The notes under the pieces are model-generated. The model was not told the origin of the DNA, ran no database searches, and saw only the letters and a list, made by a program, of their open reading frames with translations. A DNA stretch of 64,000 nt. Source: Candidatus Moraniibacteriota bacterium. Its GTDB lineage: Bacteria > Patescibacteriota > Minisyncoccia > Moranbacterales > GWC2-37-73. Position 1 is the first letter of the stretch. Each line of letters starts with the position of its first letter. Shown one piece after another: positions 1,230 through 43,228 of the stretch. The translations under genes and the position numbers were made by a program. The DNA lies in contig JAAXUC010000001.1 of NCBI GenBank assembly GCA_013336225.1, positions 35,949 through 99,948 of the forward strand. Reading direction: 5' to 3'.

Positions 1230-1886
1230 ATGGAAAATATCAGTCCTATTATCGGATATTTTATTCATCAAGGAGTACCACTGGAAACCGTTGTGCTTTT
1301 GTTTATGTTGCCTATCGTGGTGACATTAATTGCTTTTTTCCGTCAGGTGATTGGAATCAAGGCTTTTGGGATTTACACTCCGGCGATTGTGACCTTTGCT
1401 TTTTTGGCAGTGCCACAACTTCGCTATGGAGTGCTCATTTTCATTGTGGTTATTTTGGTTGGAATGTTGCTGCGCTTTGCGCTGAAAGGTTTGCGCATCT
1501 TGTATTTGCCACGCGTAGCTATTACACTCAGCATTATTGCATTTTCAATCTTGATTTTGCTCAGTGCAGGTGGAGCGATGCATCGCACGGGACTGGCTGC
1601 AGTTTCAATTTTTCCAATTTTGATCATGATTACGATTGTGGAGAAATTTGTGGCAGCTCAAATTGAAAAAGGCAATAAAGCAGCAGTCATCTTGGCGGTG
1701 GAGACTTTGATAATTTCCCTTTTTGGATATTATTTAGCAAGTTGGCCACTTTTAATCAAAGGAATCGTGGCTGTGCCATGGCTGATTTTGATCACCATTC
1801 CGATAAATATCTTTTTGGGGAAATGGGATGGTTTGCGCTTAAATGAGTACATTCGTTTCAGGGAGGTTTTGAAAAATCTTAAATAA
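1230..1886 (+). CDS. Polytopic (about 7 TM) membrane protein, possibly a 7TM partner of the adjacent RimK-like ligase (UUP1/7TM_transglut-like, without the transglutaminase part).
   Basis: The 218-aa translation is almost entirely hydrophobic helices. The call rests on membrane topology plus gene neighbourhood, not on recognised motifs. Confidence 0.4.
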   Translation: MENISPIIGYFIHQGVPLETVVLLFMLPIVVTLIAFFRQVIGIKAFGIYTPAIVTFAFLAVPQLRYGVLIFIVVILVGMLLRFALKGLRILYLPRVAITLSIIAFSILILLSAGGAMHRTGLAAVSIFPILIMITIVEKFVAAQIEKGNKAAVILAVETLIISLFGYYLASWPLLIKGIVAVPWLILITIPINIFLGKWDGLRLNEYIRFREVLKNLK

Positions 1887-2013
1887 TAACAGTGTCATCC
1901 TGAACTTGTTTCAGAGCCTGTCCTGAATTTAGTTCAGGAATCTCTCGAAAGGAAACACTTTGTGTGTTGAGGCTCGGGATTCCGGATCAAGTCCGGAATG
2001 ACAAATTTTTTCT

Positions 2014-3447
2014 ATGTTGGAAATTTTTAAGAATGGTAGCAAATTGCTAGGCATGAATGCTCGCAATTTGGATTACATTCGTCCATACAATCGAAAAAAG
2101 GCAAAAAAATTGGCAGATGACAAGATTTTAAGCAAACGCATGCTTAAAAAAGGTGGAATCCCTGTGCCAAAATTGCTTGCGAAAATACGAACCGCTGAGG
2201 AATTGGAAAATTTCGATTGGTCTTCTTTGCCGAGCACATTTGCGCTTAAACCAAATCGTGGCTATGGCGGTGGCGGAATCATGGTTGTTTATGGTCGCAA
2301 AAAACTTTCACGCAAAGAAATTGCCAACACTGAGGACGGCGAAACACCTTTACCAGTCTGGGTGAAATCAGATGGCGGCAAAGTTACAGTGGAAGATTTG
2401 AAAAGTCATATTCTAAACATTCTCGATGGTGCTTTTTCACTTGCAAACATGCCTGACATTGCTTTTTTTGAAGAACGCCTGACATTGCTGAAACTTTTCA
2501 AGCCGTATGCCTACAAGGGGATTCCTGATATTCGTGTGATTGTGTTCAATCGCATTCCGGTGATGGCCATGCTTCGTTTGCCAACCAAGGAATCTGGCGG
2601 CAAAGCAAATTTGCAACAAGGTGGAATTGGAGTCGGAATTGATTTGGCAACAGGTGTGACCACCACGGCTGTTTTGGGTAAGGGGAAGATTATTGATTAT
2701 GTGCCTGGCACTCGCATGCTTCTTTCTGGAATCAGAATTCCATATTGGAAAGAAATGTTGCTGCTTGCCGTGAAAGCACAAGAAATCTCAGGAATGGGCT
2801 TTTTGGGTGCTGATGTGGCAATTGATCGTGTGCGCGGCCCGGTCTTTTTGGAAATTAATGCGCGTCCAGGACTTTCAATTCAAGTTGCAAACCTTAGTGG
2901 ACTTAAAGAAAGACTTGAGCGCATCAAAGGTCTTAAGATTAAAACAGCTGTGCGCGGCGTACGTGTGGGCAGAGATCTTTTCGGGGGTGAAATTGAGGAA
3001 GAATTGGAGGAAATTTCTGGACGAAAAGTGATTGGCACAATTGAAAAGATAAGACTTATTGGAAAAAATGGAAAATCTGTTGAACTTGAAGCAAAAATTG
3101 ATACCGGGGCTGGATTCACTTCTATCGACACTGATCTTGCTGAAAAACTTGGTTTTGAAGATACAGTGAGGGAATATCAAAAAATTGAAACCACCTATAA
3201 AGATATTAAGCATTTAAGTAAAACAGAGCGCTGGAACATTTATAAGCATATTCCAAATCTGGAAAGCACTGTGGTTGTCAATTCTGCAAGTGGAAGCACT
3301 TACCGTCCTACCATTAAAATTACTGTCATTATGGATAACGTTATCATTCCAACAAAGGTAACATTGATCAATCGTGCACACTTGAAATACCCAATAATTA
3401 TTGGGAAAAGAAATCTGAAGAAATTTTTAATTGATGTTTCAAAATAA
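2014..3447 (+). CDS. Alpha-L-glutamate ligase-like ATP-grasp (RimK-related) fused to a C-terminal retropepsin-like aspartic protease domain (DUF785, the so-called putative ATP-dependent zinc protease)
   Basis: The N-terminus (KLLGMNARNLDYIRPYNRKKAKKLADDKILSKRML...GIPVP) resembles the alpha-L-glutamate-ligase-like family, and the ATP-grasp core is visible (FLEINARPGLS). The C-terminal part carries a D-T-G-A aspartic protease motif (KIDTGAGFTSID). Confidence 0.7.
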   Translation: MLEIFKNGSKLLGMNARNLDYIRPYNRKKAKKLADDKILSKRMLKKGGIPVPKLLAKIRTAEELENFDWSSLPSTFALKPNRGYGGGGIMVVYGRKKLSRKEIANTEDGETPLPVWVKSDGGKVTVEDLKSHILNILDGAFSLANMPDIAFFEERLTLLKLFKPYAYKGIPDIRVIVFNRIPVMAMLRLPTKESGGKANLQQGGIGVGIDLATGVTTTAVLGKGKIIDYVPGTRMLLSGIRIPYWKEMLLLAVKAQEISGMGFLGADVAIDRVRGPVFLEINARPGLSIQVANLSGLKERLERIKGLKIKTAVRGVRVGRDLFGGEIEEELEEISGRKVIGTIEKIRLIGKNGKSVELEAKIDTGAGFTSIDTDLAEKLGFEDTVREYQKIETTYKDIKHLSKTERWNIYKHIPNLESTVVVNSASGSTYRPTIKITVIMDNVIIPTKVTLINRAHLKYPIIIGKRNLKKFLIDVSK

Positions 3448-4399
3448 TATGAAAAATATTGTCATCATGTATGCTGGTGATGATTGGAAAAAAGAAATTC
3501 CAATCACGAATGATGGTACTAGGATTGCCATCCAGGACTGGATGATTCGAGCTGGGAAAATTAGGGTAAATCTCTACCGCGCAAGTATGAAATGGTATGA
3601 TTTAGAAAAAAATGTTTTCACAAAGGCTTGGTTTTTTAAGGATGGAATTTGGCAAAGATGCGAAAATGAGATTGAGCCAGATATGATTTATGATAAGGTT
3701 TTAAGTAAATATGATTATTCCTTACTGGATTTTAAATTAAAAATAGCTCAAAAAACACTGCTTTTCAATTCACCGCTTTTTCGTGCAACATTCAATAACA
3801 AATTATCTCAATATGTGATGTTTGGAGAATTTATGCCTTTTTCTCAAATTGCAAATAATAAAAAAGAATTCGAAAATTCAATAGCAAAAAGTGGGTCTGA
3901 AAAAATCGTAGTGAAGCCACTATATGGTTCTGGAGGTTTTGGTATTTTTATTGGTGGAAAGAAAGAAGCCTTAATGGAAGATTACAATTTTCCTGTCTTG
4001 GTGCAAGAATTTATTCTAAGCGAAAAAGGTATTCCTGGAGTTTCTAAAAATAATGAAGTTGCAGATCTCAGGTTGGTTTTTCAGGGAGGAAAGTTGGCTT
4101 ATGCACTTTCCAGAATTGCTGCTGACGGATCATTGTTTACCAATCTGCATCAAGGCGCAACAGGAAAAATGATTGCTGGTGAAGATATTCCAGAAAGCAT
4201 AACTGAAATGGCAAAAAAGATTAATAGCAAGATTTCAGTTTTTCAAAATGCTCAATATTCCTTGGATTTTATTTTTGATAATAGTGGGAGGCCATATTTT
4301 ATTGAAATGAATACGACACCAGGCATTGATTTGGTCACGCTCTTGGCTGATGAAAAAACAAAACAAGAAAATTTTGAATCCATAAGCGAACTGTTGTAA
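3431..4399 (+). CDS. ATP-grasp superfamily ligase (second ATP-grasp gene of the cluster). The start overlaps the upstream gene and may instead be the ATG at 3449.
   Basis: ATP-grasp motifs are present: KIVVKPLYGSGGFGIFIG and PYFIEMNTTPGIDL. There is no clear RBS, and the sequence is AT-rich. Confidence 0.6.
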   Translation: MMFQNNMKNIVIMYAGDDWKKEIPITNDGTRIAIQDWMIRAGKIRVNLYRASMKWYDLEKNVFTKAWFFKDGIWQRCENEIEPDMIYDKVLSKYDYSLLDFKLKIAQKTLLFNSPLFRATFNNKLSQYVMFGEFMPFSQIANNKKEFENSIAKSGSEKIVVKPLYGSGGFGIFIGGKKEALMEDYNFPVLVQEFILSEKGIPGVSKNNEVADLRLVFQGGKLAYALSRIAADGSLFTNLHQGATGKMIAGEDIPESITEMAKKINSKISVFQNAQYSLDFIFDNSGRPYFIEMNTTPGIDLVTLLADEKTKQENFESISELL

Positions 4400-5433
4400 T
4401 GAAAAATGAAAATTTACGTATCGCTATTGTGGCACCACCTTTTGGCGACACTGGAGGTCCTGAGGTTGTCACGCAAAATTTGACAGATGCTTTCTTAAAT
4501 ATGGGCGTGGACGTGACATTGTTTGCGCCAGCTGATTGGAATACAAGAGCAAAACATATTCCTACATTAGGAAAAAGCATTCAGAATATGACAAAAGCTG
4601 AAAAAAGCGATATCTCAAAACTTCGAATTGAGAGTCAAATGAAAGTGGTGGAATTTGCTGAAAATTTTGATATCATTCATTTTCATAGTCAACGTGAAGC
4701 TGCTAGTGTTGCAAATAAAATAAAAAATCCTTGCGTTGTTTCATTTCACAATAGAATTTCGCAGGACGTTTTTGATGGAGCCTTGGCAGCTGGCTTGTAT
4801 ACTGTGGCACTTAGCCAAAATCAAAGAGGGAATCTTAAGACATCTGCAATTATCTACAATGGGGTTCCTATGCGGAATATAAAATATTCATTCGAAAAAG
4901 GAGAGTATCTAATGTTTGTAGGCAGATTGAATGATCAAAAAGGCATAGATACAGCAATTGAAATTGCGATAAAGGCCCATAAAAAATTGTTCATTTTTGG
5001 TAGGATTGGCAATACGTCTGAAAGAAAAAAGTTTTTTGCTGAAAAAATAGAACCATTCTTAAATGATAACATTATATATAAAGGAGAAGTTGATCATAGT
5101 GAGATATATGAGTTTTTGAGAGGTGCTGAAGCATTGCTTTTCCCAATAAGGAGACCGGAGGTTTGTCCTATGGTTGTGGCAGAAGCTTTGGCGTGCGGCA
5201 CGCCAATAATTGGAACTACTATTGGGCCATTGCCAGAACTTTTGCGCAGTAAAAAAATTGCATTTCTTTCTGATCATATAGATGAGTTGGTCGAGGCTGT
5301 TCAACACACTGATCGTTTTGATAGGACAGAATGCAGGAAATATGCTCAAGATAATTTTGATAGCATTGTTATGGCTAAAAAATATTTGGATCTTTATGAT
5401 AAAATTATAAAAAATACTAATCATACCACATAG
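4399..5433 (+). CDS. Glycosyltransferase family 4 (GT-B fold)
   Basis: GT4 signatures are FVGRLNDQKGID and EVCPMVVAEALACGTPIIG. The start overlaps the upstream stop (TAATG), indicating an operon. Confidence 0.75.
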   Translation: MKNENLRIAIVAPPFGDTGGPEVVTQNLTDAFLNMGVDVTLFAPADWNTRAKHIPTLGKSIQNMTKAEKSDISKLRIESQMKVVEFAENFDIIHFHSQREAASVANKIKNPCVVSFHNRISQDVFDGALAAGLYTVALSQNQRGNLKTSAIIYNGVPMRNIKYSFEKGEYLMFVGRLNDQKGIDTAIEIAIKAHKKLFIFGRIGNTSERKKFFAEKIEPFLNDNIIYKGEVDHSEIYEFLRGAEALLFPIRRPEVCPMVVAEALACGTPIIGTTIGPLPELLRSKKIAFLSDHIDELVEAVQHTDRFDRTECRKYAQDNFDSIVMAKKYLDLYDKIIKNTNHTT

Positions 5434-5435
5434 AT

Positions 5436-6347
5436 ATGAATAATATCGATATTTTGAGAGAAGTCGAAACTAATTACAAAGATAATTTTGAAAGGCTTGA
5501 GGATAAAAAATTTCACTTCGCAGCTAGGCTGTTTCTTTGGTTTGGCGATGAGTTTGCAAAAAATAAATTAGCAGAACTTCAAGCTGAATATATTGGGAAA
5601 AATGAGCAAGAGTACAGTGAAAAAATCACAGAAATATTGAAAGAGGATAGTAGCAATGAAGGTCTCTTATTTAAAAATGAACGTGCAAAATTCTTTAACA
5701 AATATCCGCTTTTAAAAAGATATAATAAAATCTTATTTAGAAATCTGTTTTGTCAGATAATTTATGGAATAAATTTAAAACCAGTAATAAGTAAACAGAT
5801 AAATAAAGAGGATCTAATTGATTTGAAAAATGCATTATTGCATGATAGTGAGGCTATCGCAACACTTTCAACGCATGCAATAAATTACTTTTATACTTTG
5901 GATTATTATTTAAATGAAGAGGAATCATTTCTTGATCCAGCACTGTTTTTGGATATTGTTAAAAACAAGAAAAATTCAATTTTGAAAGTATATCTCTTAA
6001 CACATTGCATAATAGGAGAGTCCGCTTTTTATTCCAGGGCTATAAAAAGAAATTTGGCAGTATATGATAAAATGTTTATTGAATTGGAAACTATCATAGC
6101 TAATGATTATGCAGAGATATCCCTTGACAATAAGGTTGAATTTTTAGTTTGTGCTAAGTTGTGTCAAAAAAAGAGCATCTTGAAAGAAAAAATATTATTG
6201 GATACTGTCTTGTCTTTTGACTCAAATAACAAGTGTTTCATTGAAAATAGCGGGAAAAAATTGAAAGACACTTTCAGAAAAGGTGAGCATAGAAATGTGC
6301 TTGCGCTCATGGCTTTTTATTCTGAAAAAACAAGTCAGGAAGCTTGA
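5436..6347 (+). CDS. Hypothetical protein (303 aa)
   Basis: A long ORF tightly coupled to the upstream glycosyltransferase. It is AT-rich with no recognisable motifs. Confidence 0.5.
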   Translation: MNNIDILREVETNYKDNFERLEDKKFHFAARLFLWFGDEFAKNKLAELQAEYIGKNEQEYSEKITEILKEDSSNEGLLFKNERAKFFNKYPLLKRYNKILFRNLFCQIIYGINLKPVISKQINKEDLIDLKNALLHDSEAIATLSTHAINYFYTLDYYLNEEESFLDPALFLDIVKNKKNSILKVYLLTHCIIGESAFYSRAIKRNLAVYDKMFIELETIIANDYAEISLDNKVEFLVCAKLCQKKSILKEKILLDTVLSFDSNNKCFIENSGKKLKDTFRKGEHRNVLALMAFYSEKTSQEA

Positions 6348-6463
6348 TAAAAAATTTATTTCCTGTATACTTGAGCAGCTTTGAAAAAAGCTGTTTTAAG
6401 CATATAATGTAGTTACAAATCAGTGTTGTCGTTATAAATGTTTGTTAACTAAAATTTTTCAAT

Positions 6464-8836
6464 ATGAACTCAAATTTCATTTCACAAAGATTTAAAAGTA
6501 ACTCAGGAAAAAACAAATGGAAACTTGCTTGGAAAGCACTGGCAATTCTTTTTGGAGCTGGAATTGTGACTGTCATAGGCATATTTTTGTATTTTGCTAA
6601 AGATTTGCCAAGCGCAAATTCGGTGGATGCAAAATTGGTGGTGCAATCCACAAAAATTTATGATCGCACCGGCGAGCATCTTTTGTATGATGTGCATGGA
6701 GAAGAAAAGAGAACAGTGATTCCTTTCGATCAAATCCCGGACAATGTGAAATATGCAACCATTGCACTGGAAGATCAAACTTTTTATACGCATCATGGTG
6801 TGGATCCGAAATCAATCTTGCGTAGTGCGCTTAAAGATGTGATTAAGGGAGGAGCCGCGCAAGGTGGCAGCACCATAACTCAACAATTCATCAAGCAAAC
6901 TTTGCTCAGCAATGAAAAAACCATCACCAGAAAAATTAAGGAAGTCATTTTGGCAATTGAACTTGAACAGAAATATACCAAAGACGAGATTTTAAACATG
7001 TATTTGAATCAGATTCCGTATGGTTCAAGCGCCTATGGAGTGGAAGCTGCTGCACAGACATTTTTTGGGAAAGCAGCTAGAGATTTGACGTTAGCGGAAG
7101 CAGCTTTGTTGGCATCACTTCCAAATGCCCCAACCTATTATTCTCCTTTTGGCTCTCATACCGATGCCTTGGTAGGCAGAAAAAGTTCAGCTTTGCAGAA
7201 AATGGCTGATCAAGGCTATATCACGCAAGAGCAAGCAGATGAGGCAAAGAAGGTGGACATTTTGGCGGAAATAAATCCAAAACTAGACAACATATCAGCT
7301 CCACATTTTGTGATGTATGTGAAAGATTATTTGGAGCAAAAATATGGCGAGCAATCAGTGGAACAAGGAGGATTGAAGGTGTATACAACACTTGATTGGG
7401 ACAAGCAACAAGCAGCCGAAAAAGCAGTGAGTGAGGGTGCAGAAAAAAACGTTGCCAATAAAGCTTCCAATGCAGCACTGGTGGCTTCTGACCCAAGAAC
7501 AGGACAAATTCTGGCAATGGTTGGCTCCAAAAACTATTTTGACAAATCCATTGATGGACAGGTCAATGTTGCAATCCGTGATCGCCAGCCTGGTTCATCT
7601 TTCAAGCCATATGCATATCTGACAGCTTTCACAAAAGGATACACTCCGGAAACATTGATTTATGACGTGCCGACAAATTTTTCCACGGATGGTGAAAAAG
7701 ATTACACTCCACAAAACTATGACGGGAAGTTTCATGGGCCGCTGCAAATGAAAAATACGCTACCAATGTCACTCAACATTCCCGCTGTGAAAACTTTGTA
7801 TCTGGCTGGACTCAATGATGCCACAGCGCTAGCCAAAGGTTTGGGAATAACTGGGCTCAATGATCCATCGCGCTATGGCCTGTCTTTGGTTTTGGGTGGT
7901 GGCGAAGTTAAATTGATTGATCATGTGAATGCCTATGGTGCGTTGGCCGCTGGAGGAGTTCATCGGGATATCGCAATTATCATGAAGATCGAGGATAAGG
8001 ATGGAGCTGTGATTGAAAAATATAAAGACAATCCTGGCAATCGCGTGGTGGAAGAAAAGTATGTGGCTATGCTTGACTATATTATGTCTACCAATGAATT
8101 TAGAGCTCCGGTTTTCGGTGAAAACAGCCCGTTCAAATTTGTGGATCGTCCGGTGGCTGCAAAAACTGGAACAACCAATGAATTTCGTGATGGTTGGGCT
8201 ATGGGATATACGCCTTCAATCGCAGTTGGTGTTTGGGCTGGAAACAATGACAACACTTCCATGAAAGTCGGTGCCGATGGAATCGTGGTGGCAGCTCCAA
8301 TTTGGAGAAGTTTCATGAATTTCGCTTTGGGCAACAGCGCAATTGAACAATTTCCAAAATATGAAAAAGAAGATGCTGGAAAAGATGTGTTGAATGGAAA
8401 ATCTGATTCACAGAAAAATTTGAAAGTTTGTAAAATAGAAGTTAAGAAATACAAAGATAAGATTGGAAAATATTGTTTGGCCAATGACAGTTGTCCATCT
8501 GGCAGTGATGATAAAAAAGATTTTGCAACTGCTCACACCATTTTGTATTATGTGAACAAAGATGACCCACGAGGAGAAGCTCCAGCAAATCCGGAAAAAG
8601 ATCCTCAATTCAAGAACTGGGAAAGCGGCGTGCAAGAATGGTTCAAGGGCGAAAACAAAGATGATAATGGTGCCGCCCCAACAGAGGAGTGTAAGGAGGA
8701 ATATTTTCCTAAGCCTAAGGAGAAAGATTCCTCTGAAGAAAAACAAGCAGCTCCAACTTGCTCTGACGGTAGTCAAAATGGAGATGAAACAGGGGTGGAT
8801 TGTGGTGGGTCATGCAGTGCTTGTCTTATAATTTAA
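6464..8836 (+). CDS. Class A penicillin-binding protein (bifunctional transglycosylase/transpeptidase) with an unusual Cys-rich C-terminal extension
   Basis: It has an N-terminal TM helix, GT51 motifs (ALEDQTFYTHHGVD and STITQQ), a transpeptidase domain with SSFKP and KTGTT, and a C-terminal tail ending CSDGSQNGDETGVDCGGSCSACLII. Confidence 0.85.
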   Translation: MNSNFISQRFKSNSGKNKWKLAWKALAILFGAGIVTVIGIFLYFAKDLPSANSVDAKLVVQSTKIYDRTGEHLLYDVHGEEKRTVIPFDQIPDNVKYATIALEDQTFYTHHGVDPKSILRSALKDVIKGGAAQGGSTITQQFIKQTLLSNEKTITRKIKEVILAIELEQKYTKDEILNMYLNQIPYGSSAYGVEAAAQTFFGKAARDLTLAEAALLASLPNAPTYYSPFGSHTDALVGRKSSALQKMADQGYITQEQADEAKKVDILAEINPKLDNISAPHFVMYVKDYLEQKYGEQSVEQGGLKVYTTLDWDKQQAAEKAVSEGAEKNVANKASNAALVASDPRTGQILAMVGSKNYFDKSIDGQVNVAIRDRQPGSSFKPYAYLTAFTKGYTPETLIYDVPTNFSTDGEKDYTPQNYDGKFHGPLQMKNTLPMSLNIPAVKTLYLAGLNDATALAKGLGITGLNDPSRYGLSLVLGGGEVKLIDHVNAYGALAAGGVHRDIAIIMKIEDKDGAVIEKYKDNPGNRVVEEKYVAMLDYIMSTNEFRAPVFGENSPFKFVDRPVAAKTGTTNEFRDGWAMGYTPSIAVGVWAGNNDNTSMKVGADGIVVAAPIWRSFMNFALGNSAIEQFPKYEKEDAGKDVLNGKSDSQKNLKVCKIEVKKYKDKIGKYCLANDSCPSGSDDKKDFATAHTILYYVNKDDPRGEAPANPEKDPQFKNWESGVQEWFKGENKDDNGAAPTEECKEEYFPKPKEKDSSEEKQAAPTCSDGSQNGDETGVDCGGSCSACLII

Positions 8837-8851
8837 AATTACTTACAAAAA

Positions 8852-9424
8852 ATGATTGCAAAATTAAATGGCACAATTGATTTTATTCGGGATAACTATG
8901 TTGTAATCAGTGTGGGAGGAGTCGGCTATAAAGTTTTCGTGACTGTGCACACCTTTGGGATGATTGCAGGCAAAAAAGAAATCGACCTTTATACGCACAC
9001 CTATGTGCGCGAAGATATCTTGGCGCTATATGGTTTTTTGGAAATGGCAGAATTGGACATGTTTGAACTTTTGATTTCAATTTCCGGCATTGGTCCCAAA
9101 GCGGCCATGGGCATTTTGGCTATTGCTGATCCGAAAACAATTTCCATGGCAGTACTCAATGAAGATCCTTCAATTTTGACCAGGGTTTCTGGTGTGGGTA
9201 AAAAAATTGCACAAAGAGTTATTTTGGAACTCAAAAATAAAATCACTGACATGCCAGTGGCTGAAAAAGCGCAACTGGAAAGTGATTCCGATGCATTTGA
9301 AGCTTTGGTGGCAATGGGATATTCAGTGTCAGAAGCGCGCGAAGCGCTCAAGCTTGTTCCAGTCAAGATCGAAGATGTGGGAGAGCGTGTGAAGATGGCG
9401 CTAAAAAGTCTTGGACGAAAATAA
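8852..9424 (+). CDS. ruvA: Holliday junction DNA helicase subunit RuvA
   Basis: The N-terminus MIAKLNGTIDFIRDNYVVISVGGVGYKVFV and the HhH region ISGIGPKAA are both typical of RuvA. Confidence 0.85.
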   Translation: MIAKLNGTIDFIRDNYVVISVGGVGYKVFVTVHTFGMIAGKKEIDLYTHTYVREDILALYGFLEMAELDMFELLISISGIGPKAAMGILAIADPKTISMAVLNEDPSILTRVSGVGKKIAQRVILELKNKITDMPVAEKAQLESDSDAFEALVAMGYSVSEAREALKLVPVKIEDVGERVKMALKSLGRK

Positions 9425-9557: not shown

Positions 9558-10607
9558 GTGAAAACTAAACACAAAGGTTCCATTTTGGCATATTCTTTGA
9601 TCATTCTTTCCATGATGCTGGCAATTGCAGCGTCTCTTTCGGTGACCACTATTATTGACAAGAAAAGTGCGAGTGCAACGCAAGCTTCCGTGCAAGCTCT
9701 GCAAACTGGAGATAGTGGGATCCAGTTGGCGCTTAAAAAAATCAATGCAAATCTGACATTGGCAATTAATGACGCTGCAAATTTTGGCACTATCGGTTGC
9801 ACTGATAGCGGCACTGCCACAATAACCAGTCAGGCTTTGCAAGGAGGAAGCGAATATGTGTTAAGTTTTTATGATGTGAGTGGCGATCCAGTGTTGTGTA
9901 ATGCCTTGGCAAATAAGATTGGGATTGTTAAATCGGTTGGAACATACAAAGGTACAGCCAGAGTTGTGAGTGTAGGGATAGGTACATCATGTCCTGCAAC
10001 AATTAGTGATAATGATTCTCCAGCAAATGTTTATGCAACAGTTAGAATTGGGACGCAATGCTGGATGGCTGAGAATTTAAGAACGACCAAGAAGCCAGAT
10101 GGAGTAACAGCTTTAATAGAGGGCAATGGAATGTATTCATCAAATCCTGCAGGCACGGGTTCTCCCTGGGGTAGGTTGTATGACTGGACGACAGCGATGA
10201 ATAGTCCTACTGCAGCAGCTGCAACTGGCGAAAAAATACAAGGTCTTTGTCCGACTGGCTGGCACATTCCCTCCAATTTCAATTCATCTTCCTTGGATAA
10301 TTGGCAAATGTTGTCAGACTTTTTGGGTGGAAATAATGTCGCTGGTGGAAAAATGAAAAGCACTGACTTAAGCCATTGGAACATTCTCAATGCTGACAAT
10401 TCCAGTGGATTTGCTGGGGTGGGTGCCGGCTACTGGGAAGCAGGCACATATAAAAATGGTGGTGATTTGGCATATTTTGTTTCTTCAGATGAGCAAAATG
10501 GCAGTGATGTAAAGGCTAAGGTTTTGTCAGCTGCAGACGCCAAATTTGACACTTCTAATAGTATAGCTAAGACCGTTGGAATGTCTGTGCGCTGCATCAA
10601 GGATTAG
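9558..10607 (+). CDS. Fibrobacter succinogenes major paralogous (FISUMP) domain protein with an N-terminal membrane anchor. GTG start.
   Basis: The C-terminal half matches the FISUMP pattern (IGTQCWMAENL...YDW...CPTGWHIPS...SGFAG.GAGYW...SVRCIKD), and the N-terminus is a hydrophobic anchor. An extended -10 (TGGTATAAT) lies upstream at 9467-9475. Confidence 0.7.
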   Translation: MKTKHKGSILAYSLIILSMMLAIAASLSVTTIIDKKSASATQASVQALQTGDSGIQLALKKINANLTLAINDAANFGTIGCTDSGTATITSQALQGGSEYVLSFYDVSGDPVLCNALANKIGIVKSVGTYKGTARVVSVGIGTSCPATISDNDSPANVYATVRIGTQCWMAENLRTTKKPDGVTALIEGNGMYSSNPAGTGSPWGRLYDWTTAMNSPTAAAATGEKIQGLCPTGWHIPSNFNSSSLDNWQMLSDFLGGNNVAGGKMKSTDLSHWNILNADNSSGFAGVGAGYWEAGTYKNGGDLAYFVSSDEQNGSDVKAKVLSAADAKFDTSNSIAKTVGMSVRCIKD

Positions 10608-10692: not shown

Positions 10693-11763
10693 TTGGGTAT
10701 GGAAAAAAATAAGCAAAATATGGATTTCTTGCAGTCAGAGGCTTGGCGAAAATTTCAAGAAGCTGCTGGACGAAAAACCTCACATTTGGAAGGTGATGGT
10801 TTTTCAGTGAGCATCATTGAACATCAATTGCCGATTGTGGGGAAATATTTGTATGTACCAAAGGGACCAGTAGCCTCGCTTGAAGGCGAGGAATTTCCAA
10901 TTTCCAATAACCAATTTCCAATAAAATCTCAATTTCCAATTTCCAATGACCAAATAAAATGCGGAATGCGGAAATTGATTGATTTGGCTAAAAAGGAAAA
11001 TGCTGGTTGGATTCGGATTGAACCTGCTGACAAAAAAACATTGGAATCGATCAAGGAAAATATTTCAGAAAAAGTCATCAAAGCGCCACATGACATGCAG
11101 CCGCGGGAACTTTTTGTGTTGGACATCGCAAGGTCACCGGAGCAATTGCTGACTGAAATGAAAACCAAGACGCGCTACAACATTGGCATTGCGATGAAAA
11201 AAGGTGTTACGATCGATCATTCACAAACGGAAGCTGGTAAAAAGAATAAAGAATTGTATCTGCATGCATTTTTGCGACTGACCAAAGAGATGGCGGAGCG
11301 GCATGGAATTGCTGCGCACAGCGAGGAGTATTATCAAAAAATGGTTGAAAGTTTGCCCGACGAAATGCTGCGAATCTATGTGGCAAAATTTGAGGACAAA
11401 ATCATTGCAGCTAATCTGGTTCTATTTTATGGCGATACTGCGGTGTATCTGCATGGAGCTTCTGGCAGTCTGCACCGAAACTTGATGGCGCCATTTTCTT
11501 TGCAATGGCAAGCCATTTTGGACGCCAAAGAACTGGGCTACGCAAAATATGATTTTGGGGGCGTGCGTATACAAGATACAAAATACAAGATACAAAATAC
11601 AAACAAGTGGGAAGGGATTACCACCTTTAAAACGGGATTTTCGCCGAGAACAAAGCCGGTTGTGTTTCCTGGAAGTTATGATATTATCATAAATCCTCGC
11701 AAATATTGGGCATATCGTGGATTGCAGGCAGCGAAGTCGTTTGCGGTTAAATTTAGAAAATAA
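10693..11763 (+). CDS. FemAB-family peptidoglycan interpeptide-bridge aminoacyltransferase, carrying two in-frame heptamer-repeat insertions
   Basis: Conserved FemX/FemAB blocks are present (QSEAWRKFQ, KTRYNIGIAMKKG, FYGDTAVYLHGASGS, FKTGFSP). The tandem repeats at 10891-10955 (CCAATTT units) and 11568-11607 (ATACAAG/A units) are translated in frame. Confidence 0.75.
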   Translation: MGMEKNKQNMDFLQSEAWRKFQEAAGRKTSHLEGDGFSVSIIEHQLPIVGKYLYVPKGPVASLEGEEFPISNNQFPIKSQFPISNDQIKCGMRKLIDLAKKENAGWIRIEPADKKTLESIKENISEKVIKAPHDMQPRELFVLDIARSPEQLLTEMKTKTRYNIGIAMKKGVTIDHSQTEAGKKNKELYLHAFLRLTKEMAERHGIAAHSEEYYQKMVESLPDEMLRIYVAKFEDKIIAANLVLFYGDTAVYLHGASGSLHRNLMAPFSLQWQAILDAKELGYAKYDFGGVRIQDTKYKIQNTNKWEGITTFKTGFSPRTKPVVFPGSYDIIINPRKYWAYRGLQAAKSFAVKFRK

Positions 11764-11883
11764 TGTAATAAAAAATTTCGAATTTCCAATTTTGAATTTT
11801 GAATCAAATCTGAATGAATTAATGTTTAAAAATTTGAAACATTAGAAATTCATTCAAAATTCAAAATTCAAAATTTAAAATTA
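11764..11883. repeat. Palindromic intergenic heptamer-arm element, copy R3
   Basis: Arms of AATTTCGAATTTCCAATTTTGAATTTTGAA, a central AATGTTTAAAAATTTGAAACATT hairpin, and arms of AAATTCATTCAAAATTCAAAATTCAAAATT. Confidence 0.6.
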
Positions 11884-13230
11884 ATGCATAGAATCAAAAA
11901 AATTGTGCCCCAATCCATCAAGAACCTTTACCATTTGGCACAAGCTCTTACTGCTAATGTGATTTATGGTTTTCCATCTCGAAAAATAAAAGTGATTGGC
12001 ATCACTGGCACTGATGGCAAGACGACCACGGCGCAAATGATTGCGGGAATTTTGCAGGAAGCTGGAAAAAAAGTTGCCTTGGCTTCGACCATTAATTTTG
12101 TGATCAATGGAGTGGAAGAAAAGAATCTTTCACATTATACGACGGAATCAGCTTTCAAATTGCAAAAATTCATCAGACAAGCAGTTGGGGCAGGCTGCGA
12201 ATATTTGGTACTAGAAACTTCTTCGCACGCATTGGACCAACATCGCGTTTGGGGAGTGGAATATAAAGCTGCAGTTGTCACCAATGTGACCAGGGAACAT
12301 TTGGATTATCATGAAACCATGGAAAAATATCGAGCAGCTAAAAAAAGGCTTTTTGAAGTGGTAGAGAAAAATAAGGGAACAGTCATTGTTAACCTTGATA
12401 TGGAAAAACCGAAAGAGTTTTTGAATTTCAAAGTTAATAAAAAGTTTGCCTATACGACAAATAGTGAAAACCTGGATTCCCTGCCCACCGGCAGGCAGGC
12501 TGATTTTCGCGGGAATGACAAGGAAAGGGTCGGAATGATAAAAAGCGATGTGGAAATGATTCAGGCTGAGAATATCAGGCTTGGAATTGCTGGTTCTTCA
12601 TACGAAATACGAAATACGAAATACGAAATACATTTGCCAGGTGGATATAACATTGAGAATGCCCTTGCAGCATCGTGTGTGGCTCTTGGTGAGGGTGTTG
12701 GCATGGAAACGATTAAAGAGGCGCTGGCAAAAATCCGAGGCGTGGCGGGGCGAATGGAGGCCATAGAGAACGATCTGGGATTGCACATTTTCATTGATTT
12801 CGCACTGACCCCAAATGCCTTGGAAAAGCTTTATGCGGGGCTTTCTAGAGCCAAAAAATCGGGAGCAAGAATCATCGCAGTTTTCGGATCATGTGGCGAT
12901 CGCGATAAAGGCAAGCGTCCAATTATGGGCGAAGTTGTTTCGCGCTACACTGACATAATTGTTCTCACTAATGATGAACCATATCATGAAGATCCCCAAC
13001 AAATAATCGAAGAAATTGCAGTTGGAATTAAAAACAAAACCGAAAATCAGAATCTTTTCAGAATTGCTGATCGACGCTTGGCAATCGCCAAAGCTCTCGA
13101 GCTTGCCAAAGCTGATGACATAATCTGTATTACTGGCATGGGCAATTTTGAAACCATGGTGGTGGGGGATGAAAAAATTCCCTGGAATGATCGAAAAGTT
13201 GTCGAAGAAGAGTTGGCAAAAATTGCCTAA
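11884..13230 (+). CDS. murE: Mur ligase, MurE-like (UDP-N-acetylmuramoyl-L-alanyl-D-glutamate--diamino acid ligase), with a 7-aa in-frame repeat insertion
   Basis: GITGTDGKTTT is the P-loop, and the Mur ligase middle and C-terminal domains follow. A tandem ATACGAA x4 at 12599-12632 encodes YEIRNTKYEI just before the conserved HLPGG.N..NALAA block. Confidence 0.8.
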   Translation: MHRIKKIVPQSIKNLYHLAQALTANVIYGFPSRKIKVIGITGTDGKTTTAQMIAGILQEAGKKVALASTINFVINGVEEKNLSHYTTESAFKLQKFIRQAVGAGCEYLVLETSSHALDQHRVWGVEYKAAVVTNVTREHLDYHETMEKYRAAKKRLFEVVEKNKGTVIVNLDMEKPKEFLNFKVNKKFAYTTNSENLDSLPTGRQADFRGNDKERVGMIKSDVEMIQAENIRLGIAGSSYEIRNTKYEIHLPGGYNIENALAASCVALGEGVGMETIKEALAKIRGVAGRMEAIENDLGLHIFIDFALTPNALEKLYAGLSRAKKSGARIIAVFGSCGDRDKGKRPIMGEVVSRYTDIIVLTNDEPYHEDPQQIIEEIAVGIKNKTENQNLFRIADRRLAIAKALELAKADDIICITGMGNFETMVVGDEKIPWNDRKVVEEELAKIA

Positions 13231-26309: not shown

Positions 26310-26984
26310 ATGATCAATAAAAAAGTGGAATCAGAAATAGCGATCGGTTTAATTGTAATCATAGCCTTGATTATGGGAAGTTTAATTTGGATGAAAAATA
26401 CGAATCGATATGCTTCATCAGCTGATGTGCGGGACAAAGCTGAAGTTGGCGCAACTGATAGTGTGGTTTTTATTGGTGACAGCATCACTGCGATTGAAAA
26501 CTGGAATGCTCTGCTTGGAACGTCTTATGTGGCAAATGCTGGGATTTCAGGCAACACTACCGATGATGTTATTGCCAGGCTGGACAGGGCCATAGTTTAT
26601 AAGCCAAAGAAAATATTTTTAATGATAGGAGTCAATGATTTTCTGCGTGGCAGAGATGTTGCTCACGTTTTGGCTAACTATGAAATAATTCTGAATAGTA
26701 TCAGGAAGCAATCTCCGGACACTGTGATATATATTGAAAGTGTACTGCCAATCAATAATGATCTTTCAAAAATAGGAACCATTGATAGCCAAAAAATCAT
26801 CACCTTGAACCGGCAATTGAAAAAATTCATTGATGGAAAGAAAATATTATTCATAGACCTGTATCCATCTTTTTGTGGCGATGACAGTAAGTTATACAGA
26901 AAGTATACCGTTGATGGGGTGCATTTAAGCGCCGCTGGATATGGTGTTTGGAAAAATGCCATCTATCAATATGTGAAATTCTAG
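26310..26984 (+). CDS. SGNH/GDSL hydrolase family protein
   Basis: An N-terminal anchor is followed by the GDS motif (VVFIGDSITA), the GVND block, and D-x-x-H (DGVHLS). Confidence 0.75.
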   Translation: MINKKVESEIAIGLIVIIALIMGSLIWMKNTNRYASSADVRDKAEVGATDSVVFIGDSITAIENWNALLGTSYVANAGISGNTTDDVIARLDRAIVYKPKKIFLMIGVNDFLRGRDVAHVLANYEIILNSIRKQSPDTVIYIESVLPINNDLSKIGTIDSQKIITLNRQLKKFIDGKKILFIDLYPSFCGDDSKLYRKYTVDGVHLSAAGYGVWKNAIYQYVKF

Positions 26985-35741: not shown

Positions 35742-35813
35742 TACCCTCAGCAGGAATCGGACCTACATAACAAGCTTAGAAGGCTTGTGTTCTATCCATT
35801 GAACTATGAGGGC
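35742..35813 (-). tRNA. tRNA-Arg (anticodon TCT)
   Basis: Reverse complement GCCCTCATAGTTCAATGGATAGAACACAAGCCTTCTAAGCTTGTTATGTAGGTCCGATTCCTGCTGAGGGTA. D-stem GTTC/GAAC, anticodon loop CTTCTAA. Confidence 0.8.
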
Positions 35814-35829
35814 AAGTCCTCCCTAAAAA

Positions 35830-35989
35830 AGGATGTGGGTTATGCAGGATTTCTGCTCGCTCCGACTCGCAGCCTGGGTGCTACGCACAGAATGCTCGTA
35901 TTCCTCGCATCCTACTCGCACCCTTCGAATCTTTGCATATTTTAAATATTTTTTAAAAACTCTAAAAATAAAGAATTTTTAAAAAAATG
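35830..35989 (-). repeat. tRNA-Lys-associated mini-element. A GC-rich core of about 90 nt with a GAGCATTC box is bounded on one side by the intact tRNA-Lys 3' end and on the other by a 19-nt direct repeat of it (ATGTGGGTTATGCAGGATT on the + strand).
   Basis: The 19-nt identity between 35833-35851 and 35988-36006 was read directly. The arrangement is the attL/attR-like signature of insertion at a tRNA 3' end. Confidence 0.55.
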
Positions 35990-36062
35990 TGGGTTATGCA
36001 GGATTCGAACCTGCGACCGTCGGCTTAAGAGGCCGCTGCTCTACCAACTGAGCTAATAACCC
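35990..36062 (-). tRNA. tRNA-Lys (anticodon CTT)
   Basis: Reverse complement GGGTTATTAGCTCAGTTGGTAGAGCAGCGGCCTCTTAAGCCGACGGTCGCAGGTTCGAATCCTGCATAACCCA. It closely parallels canonical bacterial tRNA-Lys. Confidence 0.85.
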
Positions 36063-41995: not shown

Positions 41996-43228
41996 TTACT
42001 TCATTTTCAAATTTGCATGCGGTTGCATGGTTTTCCAAGCAGAAATTGATTTTTTTCTTTGCGCGTCTGACATTTTGTTCCAGCGAAAAGCAGCGGCAGC
42101 TGCAATCATGGCAGCATTGTCACCAGTCAAGGATAAGGCTGGGATAATATATGAAACTTCGGACAGATTTTTTTTAATAGCTTCGCCAAGTTGCGCGCGC
42201 AATTCTTTATTGGCACTGACGCCACCAGCCAGCAAAATTGTTTTTGGTTGGTGGGCTTCAGCTGCTTTGATGGTTTTTGCGACAAGCACATCCACAGTTG
42301 CTTGTTGAAATTCATGGCAGATTTCTGTAAGATATTTCTTATCTTTTAAAAGTTCTGGATGTTTTTTGGTTTCATATAGTACCGCAGTCTTGAGTCCGGA
42401 AAAAGAAAAATCATAATTTTTTTTGTTGAGCATTGGGCGTGGAAATTGTATTCCATATTTCGTATCTTGCATCCTATATGAGCCGTTTTGATTTCTGGTT
42501 TTTTCTTTTTGACATTTGTCATTTGGATCTTGAAATTTCTCAGCCATAGCTGAGACGACAGGTCCGCCCGGATAGCCAATTCCTAAAATGCGAGCGACTT
42601 TGTCAAAAGCCTCGCCAACTGCATCGTCCAAGGTTTGTCCGATGATTTCATATTGCAGATGATCTTTCATGAGAACGAGTTGGGTGTGACCACCAGACAC
42701 CACCAAGCATAAAATTGGGAATTTTATGCTTGGTGAATTTTGAATTTTGAATTTTGAATTTTGAACGATGGAAGATTCTTTTTTATTTGTAATTTCTGTA
42801 TTTCGAATTTGTTTGGAATTTAGAATTTGAGATTTAGGATTTACGCTAATGAAATTGGCGTAAATGTGCCCCTCAATATGATGAATTCCCAAAAGTGGCT
42901 TTTCCCAGAGATAGGAGAGGGTTTTGGCATAGCTAACCCCCACTAGCAGCGCTGGGATGAGCCCTGGGCCTTGAGTCACTGCAATGACATCAATGTGCTC
43001 TGGCGAAACTCCGGCCTCTCTCAGGGCAAAATCAAGCAAATGGTCGATATTTTTCACGTGCTCACGAGCGGCCAAGTTTGGCACAACTCCACCCCATTTG
43101 GCATGCAGTTTTATTTGCGAAGAAACCTCGCTGGCTAAAATTGCAAGTCCTTGAGCCGATGATTTCAAAATTGAAATTGCGGTGTCGTCGCAAGAAGTTT
43201 CAATGGAAAGTATTAGATTATTTGACAT
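41996..43228 (-). CDS. tsaD: tRNA N6-adenosine threonylcarbamoyltransferase TsaD (Kae1/Gcp family), carrying heptamer-repeat-derived in-frame insertions
   Basis: Conserved TsaD blocks are present (SIETSCDDTAISIL, GIHHIEGHI, VVSGGHTQL, GEAFDKVARILGIGYPGGP). An insertion of about 40 aa encoded by TTCAAAA/GAATTTT tandem repeats lies at 42733-42840, and a second QDTKYGIQ repeat-derived segment lies near 42405-42480. Confidence 0.85.
   Translation of the reverse strand: MSNNLILSIETSCDDTAISILKSSAQGLAILASEVSSQIKLHAKWGGVVPNLAAREHVKNIDHLLDFALREAGVSPEHIDVIAVTQGPGLIPALLVGVSYAKTLSYLWEKPLLGIHHIEGHIYANFISVNPKSQILNSKQIRNTEITNKKESSIVQNSKFKIQNSPSIKFPILCLVVSGGHTQLVLMKDHLQYEIIGQTLDDAVGEAFDKVARILGIGYPGGPVVSAMAEKFQDPNDKCQKEKTRNQNGSYRMQDTKYGIQFPRPMLNKKNYDFSFSGLKTAVLYETKKHPELLKDKKYLTEICHEFQQATVDVLVAKTIKAAEAHQPKTILLAGGVSANKELRAQLGEAIKKNLSEVSYIIPALSLTGDNAAMIAAAAAFRWNKMSDAQRKKSISAWKTMQPHANLKMK

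Follow-up and report, generated by a model that had tools for sequence, protein, structure and literature searches.

A candidate Rlo-type amidoligase/retropepsin system in the Candidatus Moranbacteria, with a conserved gene pair and a variable ligase cassette

We analyzed a stretch of 64,000 nucleotides from a Candidatus Moraniibacteriota bacterium (assembly GCA_013336225.1, contig JAAXUC010000001.1, positions 35,949 to 99,948 of the forward strand), hereafter the window, in which five genes at 1230-6347 lie between ruvC and the genes for a class A penicillin-binding protein (PBP1A) and RuvA. With slightly better than even confidence, we read this region as a variant, in the candidate phyla radiation (CPR; here Candidatus Moranbacteria), of the Rlo-type amidoligase/retropepsin system, which would make and trim a non-ribosomal acidic peptide, of the poly-α-glutamate type, for the cell envelope. 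The cluster has two layers: a core pair (1230-3447), consisting of a seven-transmembrane (7TM) protein gene and a ligase-retropepsin fusion gene, and a variable cassette (3449-6347), consisting of a second ATP-grasp ligase gene (AG2), a GT4 glycosyltransferase gene, and a DUF3541 gene.

Organization of the gene cluster

The features of the cluster are given below, followed by one ligase gene elsewhere in the window that belongs to the same discussion; lengths are in amino acids (aa).

1230-1886, + strand: 7TM gene, 218 aa; RloB-like membrane protein, 7TM module only
2014-3447, + strand: fusion gene, 477 aa; RloC-type ATP-grasp ligase with RloA/RimB-type retropepsin
2041-2934, + strand: ligase domain of the fusion, aa 10-307; PF14397, TIGR02291
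2977-3021, + strand: acidic linker of the fusion, LFGGEIEEELEEISG, aa 322-336
3028-3438, + strand: retropepsin domain of the fusion, aa 339-475; catalytic D363-T-G-A
3449-4399, + strand: AG2, 316 aa when started at ATG 3449; RimK-like ATP-grasp ligase, slot subfamily A; reading frame open from TTG 3431
4399-5433, + strand: GT4 glycosyltransferase gene, 344 aa; begins on the last nucleotide (nt) of AG2
5436-6347, + strand: DUF3541 gene (PF12060), 303 aa
28328-29275, + strand: RimK-like ATP-grasp ligase, 315 aa; slot subfamily D; PF08443

The listing of open reading frames (ORFs) confirmed five + strand ORFs between ruvC and the PBP1A and ruvA genes. A preliminary description of this DNA had named a 7TM protein, a fusion of a ligase-like ATP-grasp to a DUF785 domain, a second ATP-grasp ligase, a GT4 enzyme, and one unassigned gene, and the profile searches bore these families out. 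It had also described all five genes as tightly coupled, which is true of the last four, the 7TM gene being set apart from the fusion gene by a structured spacer of 127 nt. The start of AG2 is more likely ATG 3449, 1 nt past the fusion stop, since alignments with relatives begin at residue 7, and the gene predicted in locus L001 is in agreement.

The 7TM and fusion genes form a conserved core pair

Synteny was compared by tblastn over the 80 best Moranbacteria-type loci that were fetched (loci carry L numbers below). The gene order, whose conservation the preliminary description had left to be checked, is strongly conserved: yebC-ruvC-7TM-fusion occurs essentially everywhere, with PBP1A usually 1-5 kb further on, and the 7TM gene neighbors the fusion gene in every locus that extends far enough, including those in unrelated genomic contexts. 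The mean identities over 43 loci are 73.0% for the 7TM protein and 71.4% for the fusion protein, next to 74.1% for RuvC, 67.4% for PBP1A, and 60.5% for YebC. The guanine-cytosine (GC) content of both genes is ordinary for the window. Because the pair is conserved like ruvC, has normal GC, and sits at a fixed locus, it belongs to the core of the lineage and is an old, strongly constrained module rather than a recent insertion. The description of the whole cluster as an accessory insertion between ruvC and ruvA thus does not hold for these two genes.

The module also occurs in other CPR lineages, such as L084, where PKD-PKD-7TM accompanies a ligase-retropepsin-MATCAP fusion, and L086, where a ligase-retropepsin-second-ligase fusion is directly followed by ruvA-ruvB. 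In L082 and L088, it lies in unrelated contexts with neither ruvC nor a penicillin-binding protein gene. At 6248-10924 of L088/L089, from another lineage, a gene for a 593-aa protein that has no Pfam match and a heliorhodopsin gene come after the 7TM gene and a fusion-like ligase gene.

The cassette differs in composition. AG2, GT4, and DUF3541, with GC contents of 0.338, 0.360, and 0.294, are the lowest three among the 49 window ORFs with a length of 150 aa or more (mean 0.406, standard deviation 0.027), and the DUF3541 gene lies about 4 standard deviations under that mean. The preliminary description had taken the AT-rich composition of 3431-6347 as a hint of horizontal acquisition; the low GC is real and this segment turns over between genomes, but the hint does not extend to the 7TM and fusion genes.

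Repeats occur near the left end of the cluster. An AT-rich palindromic element of the AATTTCGAAT...ATTCAAAATT type is found at 447-567, 1103-1216, 11774-11885, and 42734-42765. Its first two copies flank ruvC, and the element is also present in the equivalent yebC-ruvC and ruvC-7TM spacers of relatives (e.g., L002 and L013). From this distribution, it is classed as a dispersed intergenic family of Moranbacteria, of the kind known as repetitive extragenic palindromic (REP)-like repeats. We therefore rejected the palindromes as insertion boundaries, a role that had been given to two of them on the left side. The 127-nt spacer at 1887-2013 folds as a very stable three-way junction (-44.9 kcal/mol, z = -4.5), and its hairpins (e.g., GGGATTCCGGATCAAGTCCGGAATGACA) appear at scattered, unrelated positions in relatives. 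A regulatory RNA was considered for this spacer and rejected, since it has no Rfam match, is absent from most relatives, and has scattered hairpins; it is probably a mobile hairpin repeat.

These data bear on a different explanation, in which the region between ruvC and ruvA is a recently acquired accessory island with a role in defence or conflict or in the production of a ribosomally synthesized and post-translationally modified peptide (RiPP) such as a graspetide. The low GC of 3449-6347, the repeats near the left end, and a weak, sub-threshold GT4-conflict match (E 0.004) speak for it. Against these stand the fixed position of the core pair in Moranbacteria and in further CPR lineages, the dispersed nature of the repeats, and the confinement of the turnover to the tailoring cassette. 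None of the five proteins matched a PADLOC defence model at E up to 0.01, so a defence system was rejected, and no graspetide or microviridin ligase model was matched at the same limit. The small precursor-like ORFs that the preliminary description had suggested looking for were not found in the cluster in any conserved form, the intergenic candidates falling in non-conserved repeat spacers; the RiPP/graspetide version is unsupported for that reason. We regard the island explanation as highly improbable overall, and for the core pair it is largely refuted.

Structure and relatives of the ligase-retropepsin fusion protein

The N-terminal ligase domain of the fusion protein matches PF14397 with E 1.2e-63 and 215.4 bits (gathering score 31.4). 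Its K79, E280, and N282, corresponding to the ATP-grasp lysine and the E-x-N metal-binding motif, are kept in homologues down to 38% identity. The C-terminal retropepsin domain matches PF05618 (E 2.9e-10, 40.6 bits, gathering score 27) and the NCBIfam models RloA1-3, with E 5.6e-12 for NF052264 (RloA3), and it aligns to PDB 9G58, a crystal structure of the RloA family, with E 1.4e-4. In this alignment, K361, D363, R431, and R454 of the fusion stand opposite K26, D28, R94, and R117 of the 9G58 chain, and the four residues, together with the D363-T-G-A motif, are invariant in 13 diverse homologues. With an assumed offset of 20 residues in the chain numbering, they would correspond to K46, D48, R114, and R137 of RloA. 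In RloA, K46, R114, and R137 coordinate poly-glutamate and are needed for activity, and D48 is the catalytic aspartate (PMC12239564). A signal peptide is ruled out, as the N-terminus of the fusion is the ATP-grasp domain and the retropepsin is an internal C-terminal domain; the fusion protein is therefore cytoplasmic.

The two domains are joined by the acidic linker LFGGEIEEELEEISG, which is nearly invariant in the homologue alignment; the motif LFGGE(I/V)ExExExI(S/T)G is retained in homologues at 38-54% identity. The EIEEELEE segment was considered as an autoprocessing site, which is unlikely because RloA requires at least eight consecutive glutamates and interruptions block cleavage. The linker may instead act as a pseudo-substrate or a docking element.

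At 66-91% identity, the fusion protein has relatives in over 120 clusters, each of which carries a Moranbacteria or Parcubacteria annotation, and a relative is encoded in 430 species-level genomes. A search of 1.84 billion representatives returned 2025 relatives, 417 of them at E < 1e-30; taxonomic names were recovered for very few of the distant ones. Their architectures include stand-alone ligases of ~300 aa, ligase-retropepsin proteins of ~470 aa, and ligase-(retropepsin)-MATCAP proteins of ~790 aa, as well as ligase-retropepsin-second ATP-grasp, ligase-retropepsin-YdjC, ligase-transglutaminase core, and 7TM::ligase forms. The DTG and Arg residues of the retropepsin are degenerate in precisely the MATCAP-fused forms, which argues that what is conserved is the need for a ligase and some trimming peptidase.

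The 7TM protein

The 7TM protein matches PF14402 (7TM_transglut) over residues 23-213 with E 1.7e-26. It matches the RloB model NF052267 over model positions 306-508 only (83 bits against a 900-bit cut-off), so that the 7TM half alone is present and the transglutaminase-like domain of RloB is absent. The homologues in Moranbacteria are uniformly 218 aa long, share 73-92% identity, and have R38, Q39, K44, R119, E138, K139, E146, and E158 as invariant residues. The predicted topology is N-out/C-in. A natural 7TM::ATPgrasp_ST fusion, which occurs elsewhere (P0269), requires the C-terminus to be on the cytoplasmic side, and this agrees with the six Lys/Arg residues in the C-terminal tail and with the periplasmic N-terminal domain of RloB.

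A 7TM::ATPgrasp_ST fusion was also observed in the region 8001-10801 of L083, an archaeal-looking contig with PTH2, TruD, and an intein-containing DUF87 protein. The fusion is preceded by a 914-aa prenyltransferase/squalene-hopene-cyclase-like protein and followed by a Transglut_core protein. L083 thus appears to hold a version of the module outside Bacteria with a transglutaminase-type peptidase.

The variable cassette and its RimK-like ligases

AG2 matches the RimK, YheCD, and GSH-S ATP-grasp models at ~1e-13, all far under the equivalog cut-offs, and its catalytic K162, E292, and N294 are conserved. The slot that it occupies, from the fusion gene to PBP1A, always contains one to four ORFs of ~300 aa in the 64 loci compared. 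The RimK ATP-grasp model is matched by 111 of the 115 slot proteins and the TTL Pfam model by 40 of the 115. The slot ligases fall into at least a dozen subfamilies combined as a mosaic; subfamily A, which includes AG2, is the commonest (37/64 loci). Other recurrent genes of the slot encode GT4, a MATCAP-like metallocarboxypeptidase, YdjC, GNAT, a Mur-ligase-like protein, DUF3541, and two further families. Such a mosaic of ligases, peptidases, and sugar enzymes implies that the structure of the product differs between lineages. At 2748-3719 of L017, two ORFs of 187 and 133 aa stand in place of one subfamily-A ligase, which points either to a frameshift or pseudogene or to an assembly error; if real, the split fits turnover of the cassette.

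The GT4 protein matches PF00534 (E 1.5e-22, 80.4 bits) and PF13439 (E 7.9e-9, 36.2 bits), both over the gathering scores, and reached no specific equivalog cut-off in the NCBIfam profile search. It thus has the domain pair of the GT-B fold, Glyco_transf_4 at the N-terminus and Glycos_transf_1 at the C-terminus. Among relatives it is present in ~12 of the 80 loci and only directly after a subfamily-A ligase.

The third ATP-grasp ligase that had been noted at 28328 was confirmed; it matches PF08443 at E 8.4e-10. It is 46-68% identical, over its full length, to slot ligases of subfamily D. Ten relatives carry this subfamily in the slot, and in most of them its gene comes immediately after the fusion gene, as in L015, L025, L029, L039, L041, L058, and L080; L047, L054, and L066 have further members. 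On this basis, the 28328 ligase is probably a displaced member of the system. Directly upstream of it are genes for a GDSL/SGNH hydrolase (26310-26984) and an Acyl_transf_3 membrane acyltransferase (27084-28238), a pair that resembles a split OatA-type glycan O-acetyltransferase, and it is followed by a 413-aa ORF with no Pfam match (29485-30726).

The DUF3541 protein

The gene left unassigned by the preliminary description encodes a protein identical to HGA36_00190. It matches PF12060 at 30.1 bits, marginally over the gathering score of 28.2; relatives in the same slot reach 70.7 bits (E 1.2e-19), and eight of the scanned slot proteins match. The AlphaFold2 model is all-helical with a mean predicted local distance difference test (pLDDT) score of 94.3. 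A Foldseek search against the PDB gave no match (best E 0.3, template modeling score < 0.3), nor did a profile search against PDB sequences, and we found no mention of DUF3541 in a literature search. About 22 residues are invariant, mostly polar, including H27, R31, D137, T189-H190, E218, D231, E235, and E284-H285-R286, a pattern that suggests an enzyme or a specific binding site.

The gene associations of DUF3541 are with ligases. It is the C-terminal half of an ATP-grasp fusion of ~600 aa in six genomes (L054, L059, L061, L062, L066, and L074), and it adjoins RimK-like ligases inside the module in L086. In L090 (Candidatus Microsaccharimonas) and the L094/L095 contigs, which have no 7TM gene, it stands between a RimB-like/RimK pair and another RimK-like ligase. 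An S6-like acceptor role was rejected, the C-termini being variable and non-acidic. The most fitting reading of DUF3541 is that it serves RimK-like ligases as a dedicated partner.

Neighboring genes

The genes and the boundary element on the two sides of the cluster are as follows.

588-1073: ruvC, on the yebC-ruvC side; left neighbor of the cluster
6359-6408, + strand: PBP1A upstream region with a promoter-like site; boundary element outside the system
6464-8836: class A penicillin-binding protein (PBP1A); right neighbor of the cluster
8852-9424: ruvA, after PBP1A

A promoter-like TTGAAA-16-TATAAT sequence is located at 6381-6408, and the 50-nt stretch 6359-6408 that contains it is kept upstream of PBP1A in L009, L012, L016, L019, and L027, whatever gene precedes. 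As judged from this sequence conservation, PBP1A stands apart as a unit and has a conserved promoter region of its own. Co-transcription or functional coupling with PBP1A was downgraded, given this promoter and the loss of the linkage in other lineages; the adjacency is lineage synteny.

The C-terminal extension of PBP1A (window 8680-8836), of ~150 aa, is rich in Lys, Glu, and Asp, ends with the Cys-rich motif TCSDGSQNGDETGVDCGGSCSACLII, and lies outside both the transglycosylase and the transpeptidase model matches. Between ruvA and a FemAB-family gene (10693-11763), a gene at 9558-10607 encodes a 349-aa protein that combines a PilX_N-like segment at its N-terminus with a Fib_succ_major domain and looks like a pseudopilin; it is variable in relatives and at times duplicated (L013). 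Eight tRNA genes are present in the whole window, four of them clustered on the minus strand at 35546-36062.

Comparison with known systems

The preliminary description regarded such systems as known from comparative genomics only. This is outdated, since rloABC of P. aeruginosa has been characterised genetically and structurally (Lormand et al., mBio 2025; PMC12239564). The secreted RloA retropepsins cleave runs of at least eight glutamates, and loss of RloA causes hypo-osmotic lethality, defects in cell shape and biofilm formation, and β-lactam sensitivity (PMC12239564). The defects are suppressed by deletion of rloB, encoding an inactive transglutaminase-7TM protein, or rloC, encoding a cytoplasmic ATP-grasp protein (PMC12239564); therefore, the ligase and the 7TM protein make something that the protease must trim. 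In the Moranbacteria cluster, the same three families (7TM_transglut, a PF14397 ATP-grasp that matches TIGR02291 below its cut-off, and PF05618 retropepsin) meet in one locus, and the DTG motif and the residues aligned to the poly-glutamate-coordinating K/R/R of RloA are also present. The host here is a CPR bacterium, whereas RloB is reported to be 96% proteobacterial (PMC12239564), and in the Moranbacteria version the core pair is always followed by additional RimK-like ligases, one to four in number, and in some loci by DUF3541, GT4, or MATCAP as well. Our literature search found no paper linking Moranbacteria or Patescibacteria to an Rlo-type system. Iyer, Abhiman, Burroughs, and Aravind (2009; Mol Biosyst 5:1636) reportedly described ATP-grasp ligases together with 7TM/transglutaminase proteins and peptidases and predicted that they make peptide tags or modify polysaccharides.

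In the case of RimK/RimB of Pseudomonas, a cytoplasmic α-L-glutamate ligase acts with a cytoplasmic retropepsin that trims poly-glutamate on ribosomal protein S6 (PMC12239564). The add-and-trim logic and the cytoplasmic RimB-like retropepsin are shared with the fusion protein, but the fusion ligase is of the RloC/ATPgrasp_ST type rather than RimK, its 7TM partner is obligatory, and no RimA is present. This comparison gives rise to a second explanation, in which the ligase adds a poly-glutamate tail, in the cytoplasm, to the C-terminus of S6 or of some other soluble protein, the fused protease trims the tail, and the 7TM protein regulates or localises the reaction. It is consistent with a protease that is cytoplasmic like RimB and unlike the secreted RloA, and with other CPR in which true Rimk_N and RimK occur alongside a RimB-like protease, again with DUF3541 as a partner but with no 7TM gene. 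The model scores argue the other way: the fusion ligase obtains 267.6 bits on TIGR02291 but 48.2 bits on the RimK family model TIGR00768 (cut-off 143.4), it does not match the S6-ligase equivalog NF007764, and AG2 obtains 22.8 bits on NF007764 against a cut-off of 331. No Rimk_N domain was detected in the window proteins by profile search, and no acidic tail or acidic run was found in window ORFs of at least 40 aa, among which rpsF was not located. The 7TM partner is, moreover, invariably linked and in some lineages fused. We consider modification of a soluble protein tail distinctly unlikely. Housekeeping ligases, which the preliminary description had named as the competing assignment, do not fit either, since no protein reaches the cut-off of RimK, D-Ala-D-Ala ligase, or glutathione synthase; the best housekeeping ATP-grasp scores are 24.1 bits for Ddl (cut-off 243) and 51.2 bits for GshB (cut-off 272).

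The tubulin tail code offers an analogy only. There, TTL/TTLL ATP-grasp ligases extend an acidic tail by amino acids that the MATCAP detyrosinase takes off again. MATCAP-like genes or fusions recur in the module, although this window has no MATCAP gene; the setting here is bacterial and has no known tubulin-like acceptor.

Proposed mechanism

From the homology and the gene associations, we infer the following chemistry for an Rlo-type system in Moranbacteria. The ligase would dock at the cytoplasmic face of the 7TM protein and use ATP to build an α-linked acidic chain of the poly-glutamate type on an acceptor. The fused retropepsin would pair with a second copy to complete its active site and cut over-long acidic chains, so that the fusion would provide a built-in, one-to-one length control, a role filled by RimB for RimK and by the secreted RloA in Pseudomonas. 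The extra RimK-like ligases, here AG2 and the 28328 ligase, would add or cap further residues, with DUF3541 as their catalytic or adaptor partner; GT4 could supply or decorate a sugar moiety, and the 7TM protein would pass or present the product to the cell envelope.

Several points weigh against this proposal. The TIGR02291 match (E 1.2e-79) is to a hypothetical-equivalog model and remains under its cut-off of 314.2 bits, which makes the fusion ligase a family member but, by the NCBI threshold, no equivalog. The Moranbacteria protease is a cytoplasmic domain at the C-terminal end of the ligase polypeptide, whereas RloA is secreted with a signal peptide, and the membrane protein has no counterpart of the periplasmic inactive transglutaminase domain of RloB; since trimming would here be cytoplasmic, the compartment logic differs from that of Pseudomonas. 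The poly-glutamate chemistry is carried over from the protease family and from RimK. The structure model of the 7TM protein is poor (pLDDT 63), leaving a transport role without structural support, and the parts given to GT4 and DUF3541 are guesses. The link to the envelope rests partly on the adjacency to PBP1A and FemAB, a lineage synteny that is lost in L082, L086, and L088.

The same adjacency enters an alternative proposal of cell-wall or glycopolymer tailoring, in which the ligases, rather than making a free or protein-attached tail, would amino-acylate a peptidoglycan precursor at its stem peptide or cross-bridge, like the enterococcal ATP-grasp D-aspartate ligase, or an amino-sugar polymer made with GT4, with the 7TM protein handling a lipid-linked intermediate. 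In Moranbacteria, the cluster adjoins class A penicillin-binding protein and FemAB genes; the slot takes up Mur-ligase-like proteins, the YdjC sugar deacetylase, GNAT, and GT4, as in pathways for amino-sugar conjugates; and PF14397 carries the Pfam name 'sugar-transfer associated'. The cell-shape and β-lactam phenotypes of Pseudomonas rlo mutants (PMC12239564) and the GDSL and Acyl_transf_3 genes beside the 28328 ligase point the same way. However, the module persists in the three loci that have lost the PBP1A linkage, PBP1A has a promoter of its own, and GT4 is only sparsely distributed among the loci. In addition, a poly-glutamate-type endopeptidase and MATCAP carboxypeptidases fit the trimming of chains better than the addition of single residues to a stem peptide. 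Tailoring of this kind therefore seems to us rather unlikely, though it is the alternative that we take most seriously.

The Rlo-type reading can be extended to CPR at large, in a form that we judge doubtful. A near-universal, membrane-docked, combinatorial ligase system would assemble and revise a non-ribosomal peptide that is specific to each lineage, on an acceptor that is either an envelope component or a protein. It would combine a core RloC-like ligase with up to five or so RimK-like ligases, DUF3541 as a new enzyme or specificity factor, and interchangeable peptidases (retropepsin, MATCAP, or transglutaminase-like), as a bacterial counterpart of the tubulin tail code that is possibly essential for such minimal cells.

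Implications for Rlo-type systems

The component families are already known, and four features appear to be new: a cytoplasmic fusion of ligase and protease whose partner is a bare 7TM protein, its place among the core genes in CPR, a slot in which ligases are combined in varying sets, and the partnership with DUF3541. The CPR version provides natural experiments that constrain the Rlo mechanism. The ligase-protease fusion argues that both domains share a product and a compartment, the 7TM::ligase fusion of other lineages argues for physical docking, and the exchange of the protease for other peptidases in some lineages argues that trimming is a conserved need. Since the core pair is conserved at a housekeeping level in genomes stripped of most biosynthesis, it is probably important for these cells. 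For DUF3541, the partnership with RimK-like ligases is the first functional context to be given, and the known range of RloB-type proteins is extended well past the Proteobacteria.

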